DNA from: Prorocentrum cordatum
Taxonomy: Eukaryota
NCBI GenBank assembly: GCA_963575745.1
Contig: CAUYUJ010000037.1
Coordinates: 186,001 to 250,000 of the forward strand
Reading direction: 5' to 3'
DNA length: 64,000 nucleotides
Position numbers and translations under genes: made by a program. The notes beneath the pieces were generated by a model. The model was not told the DNA's origin and searched no databases. It saw nothing but the letters and a program-made list of their open reading frames with translations. Within the stretch, counting starts at the first letter, position 1; each line of letters starts with the position of its first letter. Of the stretch, positions 38,361 through 41,467 are shown piece by piece.

Positions 38361-39025
38361 TGTTGTTGTTGTTGTGATGTGTGCGTGTGTTTTGTGTATA
38401 TAGAACATTGAATGAATGCATGCATTTCCAGATACATATATGCAAATATAATATATATATAGAGAGAGAGAGAGATCAAACAAGCATTTTTATAGATAGA
38501 ATCAGTTATCCCGGCAAAGCAACCGAACAGCGATGTGTAGAAGCATAGCTGGAAACATTGCCTGTGGTATTCATGTATGAGCGCTGTTGTAGAATTCTGG
38601 TGTTCTCGCAGTTGCACTCGGATTCGCAGTGGCAGTCGCAGTGGCAACATCAGCGGCAGTCGCAGTGGCACTGCCAGTAGTTGCAATAGCAATAGCTACA
38701 CTAGCAGCAGCAACAGCAGCAGCAGCAGCAGTAATAGTAACAGTAGTAGTAGCAGTAGAAGTAGTAGTGATGGTAGTAGTGGTAACAGTGAAGTAGTACT
38801 TGTAGTGTGTGGAGTGAACGAGTAGGAGTGATGGGAGCAGTGGTAGTAGCAGTAGAAACACTGCTTTCGATAACATGCATTGAGGTCTAAACAAGACACT
38901 GCTATCAACGGACGTGATTCCAAACGAGACACTGCTATCAACGGGTTGAGCCTCAAACGACACACTTGCACCAATGAGTGTAGCTCCAAAACAGGCACTC
39001 CCATGAATGGATTTAGTGTGATGTC

Positions 39026-39080
<55 letters not shown>

Positions 39081-39616
39081 CATGGGCAAGGACCCGTAAG
39101 ACCTGAGTCTCCACCGGGGTGCTCGGCGAAGCCATTGATGATGATGATGATGTGATGATTGAGGAGGATGATGGGATGATGACCGCGCTACTTGGATTTG
39201 TTATGTCCGTCTTTCTCGGCCTCCAACCAAATCTTGGAAGACATCTCGCAAACGGAAGAGGAGCGCACTGAGGAGCGGCGTGTGAAGCGGACAGTCGGCA
39301 AAACTTGCAGGCTGAGAAGCACCGCAGAAACTCGGAGGCTGAGAAGCACCGCGGCCGCGCAGTCCTACTACTGCTGGAACTAGGATTACAAGTACGCACG
39401 CCGAGAAGCACCGTGGACACGCGGGCTCGGATACTTCACCTCTCCCGCTTGTATTGCCGGAAATCGCGCCAACCCGGCGGCTGGCAAGTACCGAGGAGGC
39501 GCAGGCTGAGAAGCACCGCGCGAGTGCAGGCTGAGAAGCACTACGCGAGTTCAGGCCACGGCATTGCGTGTCACATGAATGCAGGCTGAGAAGCACCACA
39601 TTTTGTTTGCCAGAGA

Positions 39617-40258
39617 TCACTCCCAGGTCACCTGATCCCGCAACAACAGCCACGGCGTAGCTGCCACAGGGGCCGCAGAGAGCAACGGCTCGGTCACCCA
39701 ATTGGCCTGTCGGTGAATCACAATGCGCGCGTGGTTCCATGAGCCATTGTATCGCGCGCTGCGAGGCACCAGTGTGCTGCACGTGTTGTTGCCGTAGCAG
39801 AAGACGGCCTCTGGGGCCCAGTGCGGATTCCAGCGGACAACGTAGACCCTGTGGACGCCATTCCGGATGACGTCGCGCGCACCCTCGATCTGTGCCACCC
39901 ATCGAAGCCAGTCAAACGCTGAGCCATCGGTGATGTCAACAGCACCTGGGGCAGTCTCGCCATGGTGGTAGTGCAACAGCGTTTGGAGAGCGGCGCTCGC
40001 TTCGTCGCGGCCCACAGTCTGGCGCGAGCGGGCGGCCTCTTGCAGGTGCTCCAGTGCGAAGAGCAGTGGGGCATCACCGCCAGGCACGGCAGGCTGAGCA
40101 GCGCCGCCGCTAGGCATGGCAGGCTGAGCAGCGCTGCCACCAGGTACACCAGGCTGAGTAGCGGCAGGCCCAGGCACCGCAGGCTGAGCAACGGCGCGTG
40201 GTGGACCGACATAGGTGGGCTCATCGGGTCGGCCGTTCTTGTGGTAATGCAGGCGCAT
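39617..40258 (-). CDS. Hypothetical protein (213 aa) with AAQPA repeats and a Trp-rich globular part
   Basis: Protein-like composition (DITDGSAFDWLRWVAQIEGARDVIRNGVHRVYVVRW) and 30-bp internal repeats. Confidence 0.45.
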   Translation of the reverse strand: MRLHYHKNGRPDEPTYVGPPRAVAQPAVPGPAATQPGVPGGSAAQPAMPSGGAAQPAVPGGDAPLLFALEHLQEAARSRQTVGRDEASAALQTLLHYHHGETAPGAVDITDGSAFDWLRWVAQIEGARDVIRNGVHRVYVVRWNPHWAPEAVFCYGNNTCSTLVPRSARYNGSWNHARIVIHRQANWVTEPLLSAAPVAATPWLLLRDQVTWE

Positions 40259-40449
40259 GGCTGAGCCGTCTGTGCGAACGAACTCAAAGAAATGCCTGCC
40301 TTGGCCATCCGTGTTGGAGTAGTTTGGGTCGCGCTCTGTCTCGATGATGCGAAAGAGAACCCGGACGACGCCCTGGCCGATTACCCGGTCAGCGAGACCC
40401 GGAGCGGCAGACCGAAGCAGTTGCTTCCAGTCGTAGAACGGGTCGTTTG

Positions 40450-41044
40450 TTACGCCTCCTCAGCGAACCCTTCCATGGGGTTTGGAAGGCCCTCCGCCTC
40501 CGCGATGCGAGTCTTTGTTGTGGCTTCGACCTCTGCTTGCTTGAAGGCCTGGAGCTCGGCGTCCTGCTCCGGGGAGAACTGGTTGGCCTTCCGTGCTTTC
40601 CGGACTTTCTCTGCCAGCTGCCGCCCTGCGAGGCTACGCCCGGCATGCTCCTTCGGGTGGCGGCCGAGGTCTCGCACTTGCTGCATGAGCTCCTCGGTCT
40701 TGTCTCGTTTTTGCTGCATGAGCTCCTCGGTCTTCTGTCTGCTGATCAGCGCAGCCCAGGGCCCGCAATTCATGCGACATGTCTCTGGGGATGCGGTCGC
40801 GATGGTCCGAGAAACGTTTGGCCAACTTGTTTTCGGCCCGTTCTTGTTCGGACGTTCCTTTATCTCGCTTCGGTATCCGGCCGAACTGCTTCACGTGCTC
40901 GACGAGCGTTTGCAGAGGGCCGCTCAATGCAGCACGCTGAGGAGCAGCGCTGTTCCCTGCCGCAGGCTGAGGAGCACCGCTGTTCAATGCAGCAGGGTCA
41001 GGAGCACCGCCGCCAGACCGAAAACTATCAGCATGTCCTGGCAT
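40450..41044 (-). pseudogene. Frameshifted ORF with two helicase-associated (HA)-like helical repeats
   Basis: LVEHVKQFGRIPKR...ENKLAKRFSDHR...ELRALG and LMQQVRDLGRHPKE...RQLAEKVRKAR...EQDAELQAF resemble each other and the HA-domain pattern. Recognised by eye only. Confidence 0.45.
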
Positions 41045-41152
41045 TAAGGTGTGCAGTAGGCGCCGCGCAGTTCCTTTGAAAGGAGATCTTCGAAAGCAGG
41101 GCTGTAGCCAAGAAGGCTACGGGGACGATGATGATGATGAAGATGATGAGTC

Positions 41153-41467
41153 TTGGAAGTCTGGGAAGTGGAAGAGCACGAAGTGGCGTGCAGTTTGCTC
41201 CGGGCATTCAAAATGTGGCCCGGGAGTGGAGTTTTGGGAAGTGGAAGAGCACGAAGTGACCTACAGTTGGCTCCGGGCATTCAAAATGTGGCCCGGGAGT
41301 GGAGTTCTGGGAAGTGGAAGAGCACGAAGTGGCCTACAGTTGGCTCCGGACATCCAAAATGTGCCCCGGGAATGGAGTTCTGGGAAGTCGAATAGCACGA
41401 AGTGGCTTACAGTTTGCTCCGGGTATTCAAAATGTGGCCCGGGAGTGGAGTTCTTGGAGGTCGAAGA
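41153..41467. repeat. 73-bp minisatellite, ~4.3 copies
   Basis: GGGAAGT(G/C)GAA at 41163, 41236, 41309, 41382. Confidence 0.92.

Follow-up and report, generated by a model that had tools for sequence, protein, structure and literature searches.

A recurrent minus-strand hairpin in a dead chimeric retrocopy of Prorocentrum cordatum: a candidate protein-bound stem-loop of dinoflagellate messenger RNAs

Hairpin copies and host DNA in the window

Within a stretch of 64,000 nucleotides from the dinoflagellate Prorocentrum cordatum (contig CAUYUJ010000037.1, positions 186,001 to 250,000 of the forward strand; referred to here as the window, with positions counted from its first letter), we analyzed a small hairpin that recurs on the minus strand. 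The 64-kb window contains 13 copies of this one hairpin, all of them on the minus strand and confined to 39302-41015. Its form, read on that strand, is a lower stem of 5-7 bp, a bulged pyrimidine (C or U), the apex GCU-NYUC-AGC (GCU-NCUC-AGC in the window copies) and then the other arm. The exact plus-strand core, GCTGAGNAGC, occurs ten times in the 64 kb, 10/10 on the plus strand within 39311-40975, compared with an expected 1.07, and none of 100 shuffles reached ten. A 15-mer scan allowing up to two mismatches returned 13 copies, on the plus strand only (39308-41007); the 12 remaining 15-mer matches elsewhere in the window carried 2-3 mismatches and were at chance level. When the window was scanned with a covariance model of 29 positions and 9 pairs, the best match outside the hairpin region had an E value of 0.32. 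A sequence-only reading of this DNA had earlier listed seven examples of a recurring minus-strand hairpin, and that hairpin is real, as the model recovered all seven on the minus strand where they had been placed (39302-39330, 39496-39524, 39576-39604, 40084-40112, 40114-40142, 40927-40955 and 40957-40985). The training set of the model included those seven hairpins. The remaining six copies are at 39333-39353, 39391-39419, 39526-39544, 40144-40172, 40174-40202 and 40987-41015, the last of which lay outside the training set.

The DNA that hosts the 13 copies is a dead chimeric retrocopy of two messenger RNAs (mRNAs), which runs from a worn spliced leader through the 5' part of a helical-repeat gene into the 3' part and 3' untranslated region (3'UTR) of a two-domain gene (Table 1). 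The tblastn alignments to a two-domain relative, P0002, start at its residue 80, and since the relatives of the 280-residue open reading frame (ORF) align from about that residue only, the window copy is cut at its 5' side. Two-domain homology ends at 40453 and helical-repeat homology ends at the same place, while the match of a paralogous contig (X9 record 26) is restricted to 39520-40454; the joint is thus placed at about 40455. The helical-repeat fragment changes frame between about 40740 and 40775, homologue P0189 continuing in the second frame, and it ends in ..NPMEGFAEEA followed by a stop; homologue P0191 runs past this truncation point. The relict leader, identified with a reference that we take to be the dinoflagellate spliced-leader sequence, is the sole match at five or fewer mismatches on both strands of the window, and 30 shuffles gave no match at four or fewer. 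The attribution of the genes to dinoflagellates is based on this leader. The leader remnant, the truncated gene parts and the joint together indicate that the hairpins lie in a dead chimeric retrocopy. Slamovits and Keeling are said to have described, in 2008, dinoflagellate retrogenes with relict spliced leaders; like them, the host DNA is derived from mRNA and carries a worn leader at its 5' end on the strand of the gene, but it differs in being a chimera of two mRNAs whose coding sequence is interrupted by a frame change and a stop. On the minus strand at 40680-40745, the helical-repeat fragment also contains an in-frame 33-nt tandem duplication (TEELMQQ.. twice).

Neither a poly(A) remnant nor a clear 3' end of the retrocopy was found, and there is no plus-strand T-run below 39300. 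Contigs from three of four sequencing runs join 38943 directly to 39306, and two also join to 39257. These joins indicate that the 3' part of the retrocopy has been rearranged in the window, and that the (GTA)18 and (TGA)n microsatellites with their neighbouring sequence (38944-39305) are absent from other copies of the retrocopy. The stretch is multi-copy in the four sequencing runs and rearranged between copies; no RNA run was among those listed as containing it. In X2 contigs, 41602 is linked to 38506 through 1-3 A, so that the retrocopy sits inside a high-copy element arranged head to tail elsewhere. A 73-nt tandem satellite with a GC-rich hairpin in each unit occupies 41160-41467 and is extremely abundant in the four runs.

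Table 1. Coordinates of the hairpins, of the retrocopy parts and of the apices of the hairpins in the long interspersed nuclear element (LINE); MFE, minimum free energy
Feature	Position in window	Strand	Remarks
3'UTR hairpin 1	39576-39604	-	Model 26.1 bits; MFE -8.1 kcal/mol, z -2.4
Two adjacent 3'UTR hairpins, 25-nt tandem pair	39496-39524 and 39521-39549	-	28.7 and 15.3 bits
Decayed 3'UTR copy	39391-39419	-	Apex GCTTCTCGGC; first outer pair broken; 17.2 bits, E 0.11
3'UTR 27-nt tandem pair	39302-39330 (intact) and 39329-39357 (lower stem broken)	-	24.2 and 17.1 bits
Four head-to-tail 30-nt units in the code for the interdomain linker	40084-40202	-	..AVAQPAVPGPAATQPGVPGGSAAQPAMPSGGAAQPAVPGG..; 36.4, 31.3, 24.3 and 26.3 bits
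Three 30-nt units encoding the repeated N-terminal SGAPQPAA / SAAPQRAA, helical-repeat gene	40927-41015	-	28.2, 29.7 and 20.7 bits
280-residue ORF, 3' part of the two-domain gene	39617-40459	-	About 80 N-terminal residues missing compared with full-length relatives
5' part of the helical-repeat gene	40450-41047	-	Modules LVExVKQFGRIPK..ENKLAKRF; starts at the ATG near 41047
Junction of the two gene fragments	40450-40460	-	Not at a hairpin; both homologies stop there
Relict dinoflagellate spliced leader	41122-41102	-	17/21 bases; about 55 nt upstream of the conserved ATG
LINE hairpin apices	10572, 10689, 11988, 13018, 13868, 17228, 19372, 20486, 21631, 22597, 23975, 25321	-	

The copies fall into three groups, with six at 39302-39604, four 30-nt tandem units at 40084-40202 and three 30-nt units at 40927-41015. 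As had been noticed before, some are located within ORFs (clusters 40090-40194 and 40933-41007) and others are not, namely those at 39308-39596, which are in mixed frames. The core of 3'UTR hairpin 1 begins 22 nt past the TGA, and this hairpin has positional orthologues in nine related loci. The differences between the two members of the 25-nt tandem pair are one-sided and keep the pairing (G.U to A-U, C-G to U.G). Among the linker units, those at 40084-40112 and 40114-40142 form 7/7 outer pairs, and those at 40144-40172 and 40174-40202 have the first outer pair mismatched; the four together encode the peptide ..GGAAQPAVPGG... In the helical-repeat group, the unit at 40927-40955 has its first outer pair flipped to C-G and encodes A..R in place of the usual flanking residues, a form that is also present in homologues P0180 and P0181. 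The unit at 40957-40985 also belongs to this N-terminal array, and the unit at 40987-41015 has a decayed apex.

Conservation, pairing and translation of the hairpin

Relatives were obtained by searching metagenome contigs with the conserved domain peptides of the two-domain gene, the motif itself not being used, and the nucleotide data beyond the window are those of the two-domain family alone. The search yielded 12 loci, six with a protein identity of 63-87% and six of 29-33%. The nucleotide motif was present on the sense strand in 12/12 loci. Over their 20,944 bases the exact core GCTNYTCAGC occurred 47 times in sense and 0 times in antisense orientation, and 72 and 11 times, respectively, when one mismatch was allowed, so that the strand bias on which the sequence-only reading had staked its proposal is present. 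The sites lie near the N-terminus, in the interdomain linker and in the 3'UTR, where the core starts 22-25 nt after the TGA in 10/10 sequences. Four distant loci have a placeable ATG, and in these the N-terminal core stands at +36 (L007, L008 and L010) or +15 (L012). A relative carries from one to seven copies, which form tandem arrays of 25-30 nt (60-nt in L008). The hairpin had been proposed as a family-specific barcode of mobile elements, borne here by an unrelated insertion; this is not supported, as the copies come from mRNAs of two protein-coding families, and relatives of one family at 29-33% identity have their hairpins at fixed positions from start and stop.

Other structures were observed around these hairpins. 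Among the close relatives, a second small hairpin directly follows the TGA in L001 (1224-1241), L002 (1001-1018), L003 (930-944) and L004 (1032-1047) and covaries, reading TCTCT..AGAGA in L001 and L002, CTCTC..GAGAG in L004 and AAGCC..GGCTT in L003; the corresponding site in the window (39599-39616, minus strand) has a decayed 3' arm. In the distant clade (L009 843-905, L010 1337-1400, and the same place in L011 and L012), a 7-nt long-range pairing between TCATATG just past the stop and CATATGA about 50 nt downstream encloses the 3'UTR hairpin. Three extra hairpins lie in a different gene region downstream of the family gene in L008 (2930-3120), two of them with an ATG within the 5' arm of the lower stem and in another frame (M-A-A-L-L-S-P-P). 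The variant apex GCU-GCUU-AGC was found in one extra L008 hairpin and also in L011 at 2671.

Covariation was assessed on 81 distinct sense-strand 29-mers from the 12 loci and the window, which were picked by the 10-nt apex with at most one mismatch, chance matches included; the flanks of these instances had no role in their selection. When the 5' arm is given a bulge of one base, pairing holds in 381 of 486 outer cells, as opposed to 110-190 in other registers, and permutation of the 3' arms over the 81 instances lowered the number to 314 +/- 7, with 0/5000 permutations reaching the observed value. The fraction of cells paired over the 81 instances was 83.4% compared with 74.3 +/- 0.9% in shuffled sets, 77 cells were changed on both sides compared with 27.3 +/- 6.7, and the covariation score was 0.327 compared with 0.178, each value being reached by 0/500 shuffles; slid partner registers were 26-44% paired. 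Because relatedness can inflate such figures, the arms were also permuted within each locus as a control for lineage, over pairs 3-6 only, and 272 of 348 cells paired against 226 +/- 6 (0/5000 reached it). Even for the window copies alone, the fit of each copy to its own arm (40/56 cells) exceeded the permuted value of 32.8 +/- 2.4, and 9/5000 permutations reached 40. Within the orthologous 3'UTR hairpin, which is untranslated, pair 1 is GC in five sequences and AU in five, pair 5 is UA, UG, CG or AU, and pair 6 is AU in three and CG in six.

The claim that stem mismatches are mostly G-U pairs on the minus strand held in direction; the excess of G.U over A.C on the sense strand was modest in the window (14 vs 7) and became clear with the relatives (93 vs 21). 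The second pair is nearly fixed as G.U, in 55 of the 81 instances. The hairpin was the MFE structure in 12/12 copies folded (six from the window and six from relatives), with values of -7.1 to -15.6 kcal/mol, and RNAalifold recovered the same outer stem. These data display compensatory changes beyond column composition and relatedness, the mark of a selected structural RNA. Plain 30-bp tandem duplication free of compensatory change, which the sequence-only reading had named as an outcome that would refute its proposal, is at odds with the covariation and the within-locus permutation in the window and the 12 loci. Given covarying stems at orthologous positions, the hairpin looks selected and old, not recently mobile.

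Two other explanations were considered. A miniature palindrome might have inserted in frame into tolerant gene parts and UTRs, as do the Rickettsia palindromic elements, in-frame insertions of 100-150 bp in protein genes. Like those elements, the hairpin is a palindromic repeat that is translated within proteins and tolerated in surface or linker parts; it is found in two otherwise dissimilar families and beside a third gene in L008, its copy number varies, and its copies are restricted to disordered or untranslated parts. It differs from them in its length of 29 nt, its covarying stems and its orthologous positions, which are kept across relatives of 30% identity. Lower stems that differ among copies and covary would be unexpected for a fixed-sequence element that spread recently, and no target duplications or empty sites were seen; we give this explanation very little credence. 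Among the sequences compared, tandem copy number alone varies. The second holds that the sense strand forms the structure as single-stranded DNA during replication or transcription, either as a cause of slippage that varies the copy number or as the site of a recombinase or HUH-type enzyme. The tandem arrays, and their spread from one to seven copies between relatives, would agree with slippage. Against it stand the nearly fixed G.U pair, which is weak in DNA, and the constant location of the hairpin, in the transcribed sense strand and with set distances to the start and the stop codon. Neither element ends nor insertions were seen at the hairpins, the sole chimeric joint lies elsewhere, and overall we regard a single-stranded DNA structure as improbable.

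The proteins provide the setting for the translated copies. A total of 39 homologues and 204 clusters at E <= 1e-3 were found for the two-domain family, and the source names are just 'hypothetical protein'; a Pfam search gave no family for either protein. The AlphaFold model of P0002, a relative of the product of 39617-40459, was confident (predicted local distance difference test score, pLDDT, of 86.7; predicted template modeling score, pTM, of 0.77). Fold searches with this model gave no Foldseek match at E <= 0.001 and a best VIA-align Z of 4.8, and the predicted structure suggests that the two-domain protein may have an undescribed fold, in a family of more than 200 clusters. The linker is disordered in the model, with pLDDT <60 at residues 170-210. 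A.QP occurs in 82 of 179 homologous proteins, with 170 motifs in total, at the N-terminus and in the linker, both of them disordered segments in the P0002 model. Beyond this linker motif, the two-domain and helical-repeat families have no similarity. Stop-codon readthrough was considered and rejected, as the frames past the TGA are short and not conserved.

To separate constraint on the RNA from constraint on the peptide, 35 coding instances picked by peptide only were compared with the rest of the same genes, and their synonymous sites proved frozen. The Ala codon was GCT in 30/35 motifs (89/424 elsewhere), the loop codon ended in T in 31/35 (356/1660), the Gln codon was CAG in 33/35 (113/187) and the Pro/Leu codon ended in T in 26/35 (118/490). 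The first outer pair links the second codon bases of the residues on either side of A-x-Q, and these residues switch among G..P, D..L and A..R as base pairing predicts: in 193 proteins they were G..P in 126, G..L in 9, D..P in 6, D..L in 14 and A..R in 4, with an association of G/D with P/L at a Fisher p of 7.5e-10. The hairpin is so constrained that the RNA dictates the amino acids of the linker peptides.

If the hairpin were an incidental palindrome, selection would act on the peptide G-A-x-Q-P-A only, tandem duplication would spread the unit, and Gly (GGN) and Pro (CCN) codons would be complementary by chance. One reading frame does dominate in the proteins (159 cases of A[ASPT]QP, the two alternative frames having 10 and 4), the segments that hold the peptide are disordered and 30-nt tandem arrays are present; the frame bias also fits translation that is tolerated only as a small, polar, proline-containing linker. 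We find the incidental palindrome hardly credible, since untranslated copies retain both motif and pairing, synonymous sites are frozen, the stem of one L008 copy contains an ATG and that copy is in a different frame, and the switching of flanking residues has no protein-level rationale while fitting the base pairing exactly.

Comparison with the LINE hairpins and with known RNA elements

Between 10.5 and 25.4 kb of the window, on the minus strand, a giant LINE has 12 hairpins that consist of a stem, a bulged C, GGC-TYCA-GCC and stem', at intervals of about 1-1.3 kb. Two of them have variant upper stems, and the lower stems covary. A window-wide scan for this architecture gave 58 sites compared with 29 in shuffles, and the only two recurrent apex families, both on the minus strand, were those of the LINE hairpin and of the hairpin described here, which we refer to as the mRNA hairpin. 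The two have in common the sense strand, a covarying lower stem, a bulged pyrimidine, a 3-bp upper stem, a pyrimidine-rich tetraloop and many copies per RNA. They differ in apex (GGC-UYCA-GCC in the LINE, GCU-NYUC-AGC in the mRNA hairpin) and in spacing, the LINE copies standing about 1-1.3 kb apart within one element and the mRNA hairpins 25-30 nt to a few hundred nt apart. Unlike the LINE hairpins, the mRNA hairpins occur in cellular-type genes and at fixed places with respect to the start and the stop codon, and their second pair is a conserved G.U. The covariance model of the mRNA hairpin found no match in the LINE better than E 0.79. The earlier observation that the architecture matches that of the LINE hairpin and the sequence does not thus stands, with 12 LINE copies of C-GGC-TYCA-GCC: the mRNA hairpin shares the topology of the LINE hairpin, not its family. 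Since only two apex families recur, the suggestion that each transposable-element family has a variant of its own received no further support in the window.

A shared topology with a different apex keeps two ideas alive, namely that the LINE machinery is borrowed or that one recognition system serves both. By the first, the hairpin is a hitch-hiking retrotransposition signal that imitates the hairpins of the LINE RNA and recruits LINE proteins, so that the mRNAs bearing it are retrocopied more often. This would agree with the 12 sense-strand hairpins of the same topology in the LINE of the window, with the retrocopied state of the host DNA, which has a relict leader and a chimeric joint such as template switching produces, and with a large family (204 clusters) and a stretch that is multi-copy in four runs. 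We nevertheless think it unlikely. The apex, the invariant part that a protein would read, is wholly different from that of the LINE, the fixed distances to start and stop across relatives of 30% identity suggest that the hairpin serves the mRNA itself, and dinoflagellate genes in general are commonly retrocopied with relict leaders.

Searches for known elements were negative. Rfam gave no match at the gathering score over the whole window, and over 39200-41150 a cut-off of E <= 10 let through chance-level rows alone. When viral contigs were scanned for the pattern, there were 109 single matches, none clustered in one locus and about the number expected by chance, as estimated without a shuffle control; relatives of the two-domain and helical-repeat families were not found in viral contigs. 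Likeness of the motif to the spliced leader was considered and dismissed, only about five bases being in common. Our literature search found nothing that links the peptide words, or dinoflagellate mRNA stem-loops, to the hairpin, and the parts of a 2026 review of dinoflagellate RNA-binding proteins that we consulted (PMC12787238) name no such mRNA hairpin.

By our comparison, the closest kinds appear to be the regulon-type mRNA stem-loops and the RNA structures inside viral coding regions. The mRNA hairpin resembles the former in being a short hairpin with an invariant apex that is shared by a set of mRNAs, often with several copies in a UTR, and differs in that some copies form part of coding sequence and, being translated, constrain the protein, and in having no Rfam match. 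Protein-binding stem-loops that define regulons of mRNAs include the iron-responsive element (IRE), the histone 3' stem-loop and the Smaug/Vts1 and Roquin elements. The IRE combines a bulged C with an upper stem of 5 bp and a hexaloop, CAGUGN; the mRNA hairpin likewise bears a bulged pyrimidine, and its stem, too, may covary, but with its 3-bp upper stem and NYUC tetraloop it has the bulged pyrimidine alone in common with the defined element. The histone 3' stem-loop (Rfam Histone3) consists of a 6-bp stem and a 4-nt U-rich loop without a bulge, has conserved flanks and belongs to histone mRNAs. The first 3'UTR copy of the mRNA hairpin likewise lies a few tens of nt past the stop, whereas its bulge, its different apex, its non-histone host genes and the lack of an Rfam match set it apart.

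RNA viruses have cis-acting structures in their coding regions and dispersed packaging signals. There, as here, RNA pairing overlaps an ORF and constrains both codons and amino acids, and a small bulged hairpin is repeated often; the difference is that the mRNA hairpin lies in cellular-type genes with a spliced leader and that no viral relatives were found.

A putative docking site on dinoflagellate mRNAs

Taken together, we consider it fairly probable that the hairpin is a selected sense-strand RNA stem-loop carried on mRNAs from two or more gene families of dinoflagellates, with the window copies as passengers in a retrocopy, and that it serves as a putative protein docking site. An invariant apex, a bulge and a G.U pair on a freely covarying stem are typical of hairpins that a specific protein reads, and a docking site for a host RNA-binding protein is probably its role and our best guess. 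The lower stem of 5-7 pairs is free to vary as long as pairing holds, with the second pair nearly fixed as G.U, while the bulged pyrimidine and the invariant apex GCU-NYUC-AGC would be the parts recognized by a sequence- and shape-specific RNA-binding protein. The mRNAs bear several copies, shortly after the start codon, in the disordered interdomain linkers and in the 3'UTR, the first of the latter 22-25 nt past the stop; those in the linkers are translated in frame as G-A-x-Q-P-A. Such a hairpin most likely tags its mRNAs for common handling, be it stability, translation or localisation, and multiple copies may add avidity. The 13 window copies are inherited passengers from the two mRNAs fused in the retrocopy.

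Several observations weigh against this stem-loop interpretation. The z-scores of single-sequence folding are weak (-0.5 to -3.1), and RNAalifold also offers an alternative apex in which the bulged base pairs with G19 and the loop has 8 nt. Because the apex is invariant, its 3-bp stem is without covariation and has thermodynamic support alone. The relatives form two clades only, and many of the hairpins are orthologous to one another or repeated in tandem, which makes the counts higher than the true number of independent events. A good stem is missing from some conserved linker units, among them the AATQPD unit (40144-40172) and its counterparts in L001, L002 and L003. Furthermore, a search with the linker among longer proteins, aimed at the motif beyond the two families, found none, which is weak evidence.

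A wider proposal would extend the stem-loop interpretation to the LINE. In it, a common hairpin scaffold would act as a dinoflagellate address system in which each class of RNA (the giant LINE, a set of cellular mRNAs) has its own invariant apex and a dedicated reader. We put this forward tentatively and as a rather doubtful possibility. Were it true, the linker peptides would switch among G..P, D..L and A..R through RNA pairing, and the system might be a main route by which mRNAs are sorted into co-regulated groups where there is little transcriptional control.

Gene regulation in dinoflagellates takes place mostly after transcription, and to our knowledge almost no cis-acting mRNA elements have been described in these organisms. 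The mRNA hairpin is such an element with support from covariation; its defined apex is usable as bait for a binder, and any transcriptome of a dinoflagellate can be searched for it. It is also a clear case in which the structure of an RNA sets the protein sequence of cellular genes and, as a second example of the hairpin design seen in the LINE of this genome, makes a shared recognition system testable.

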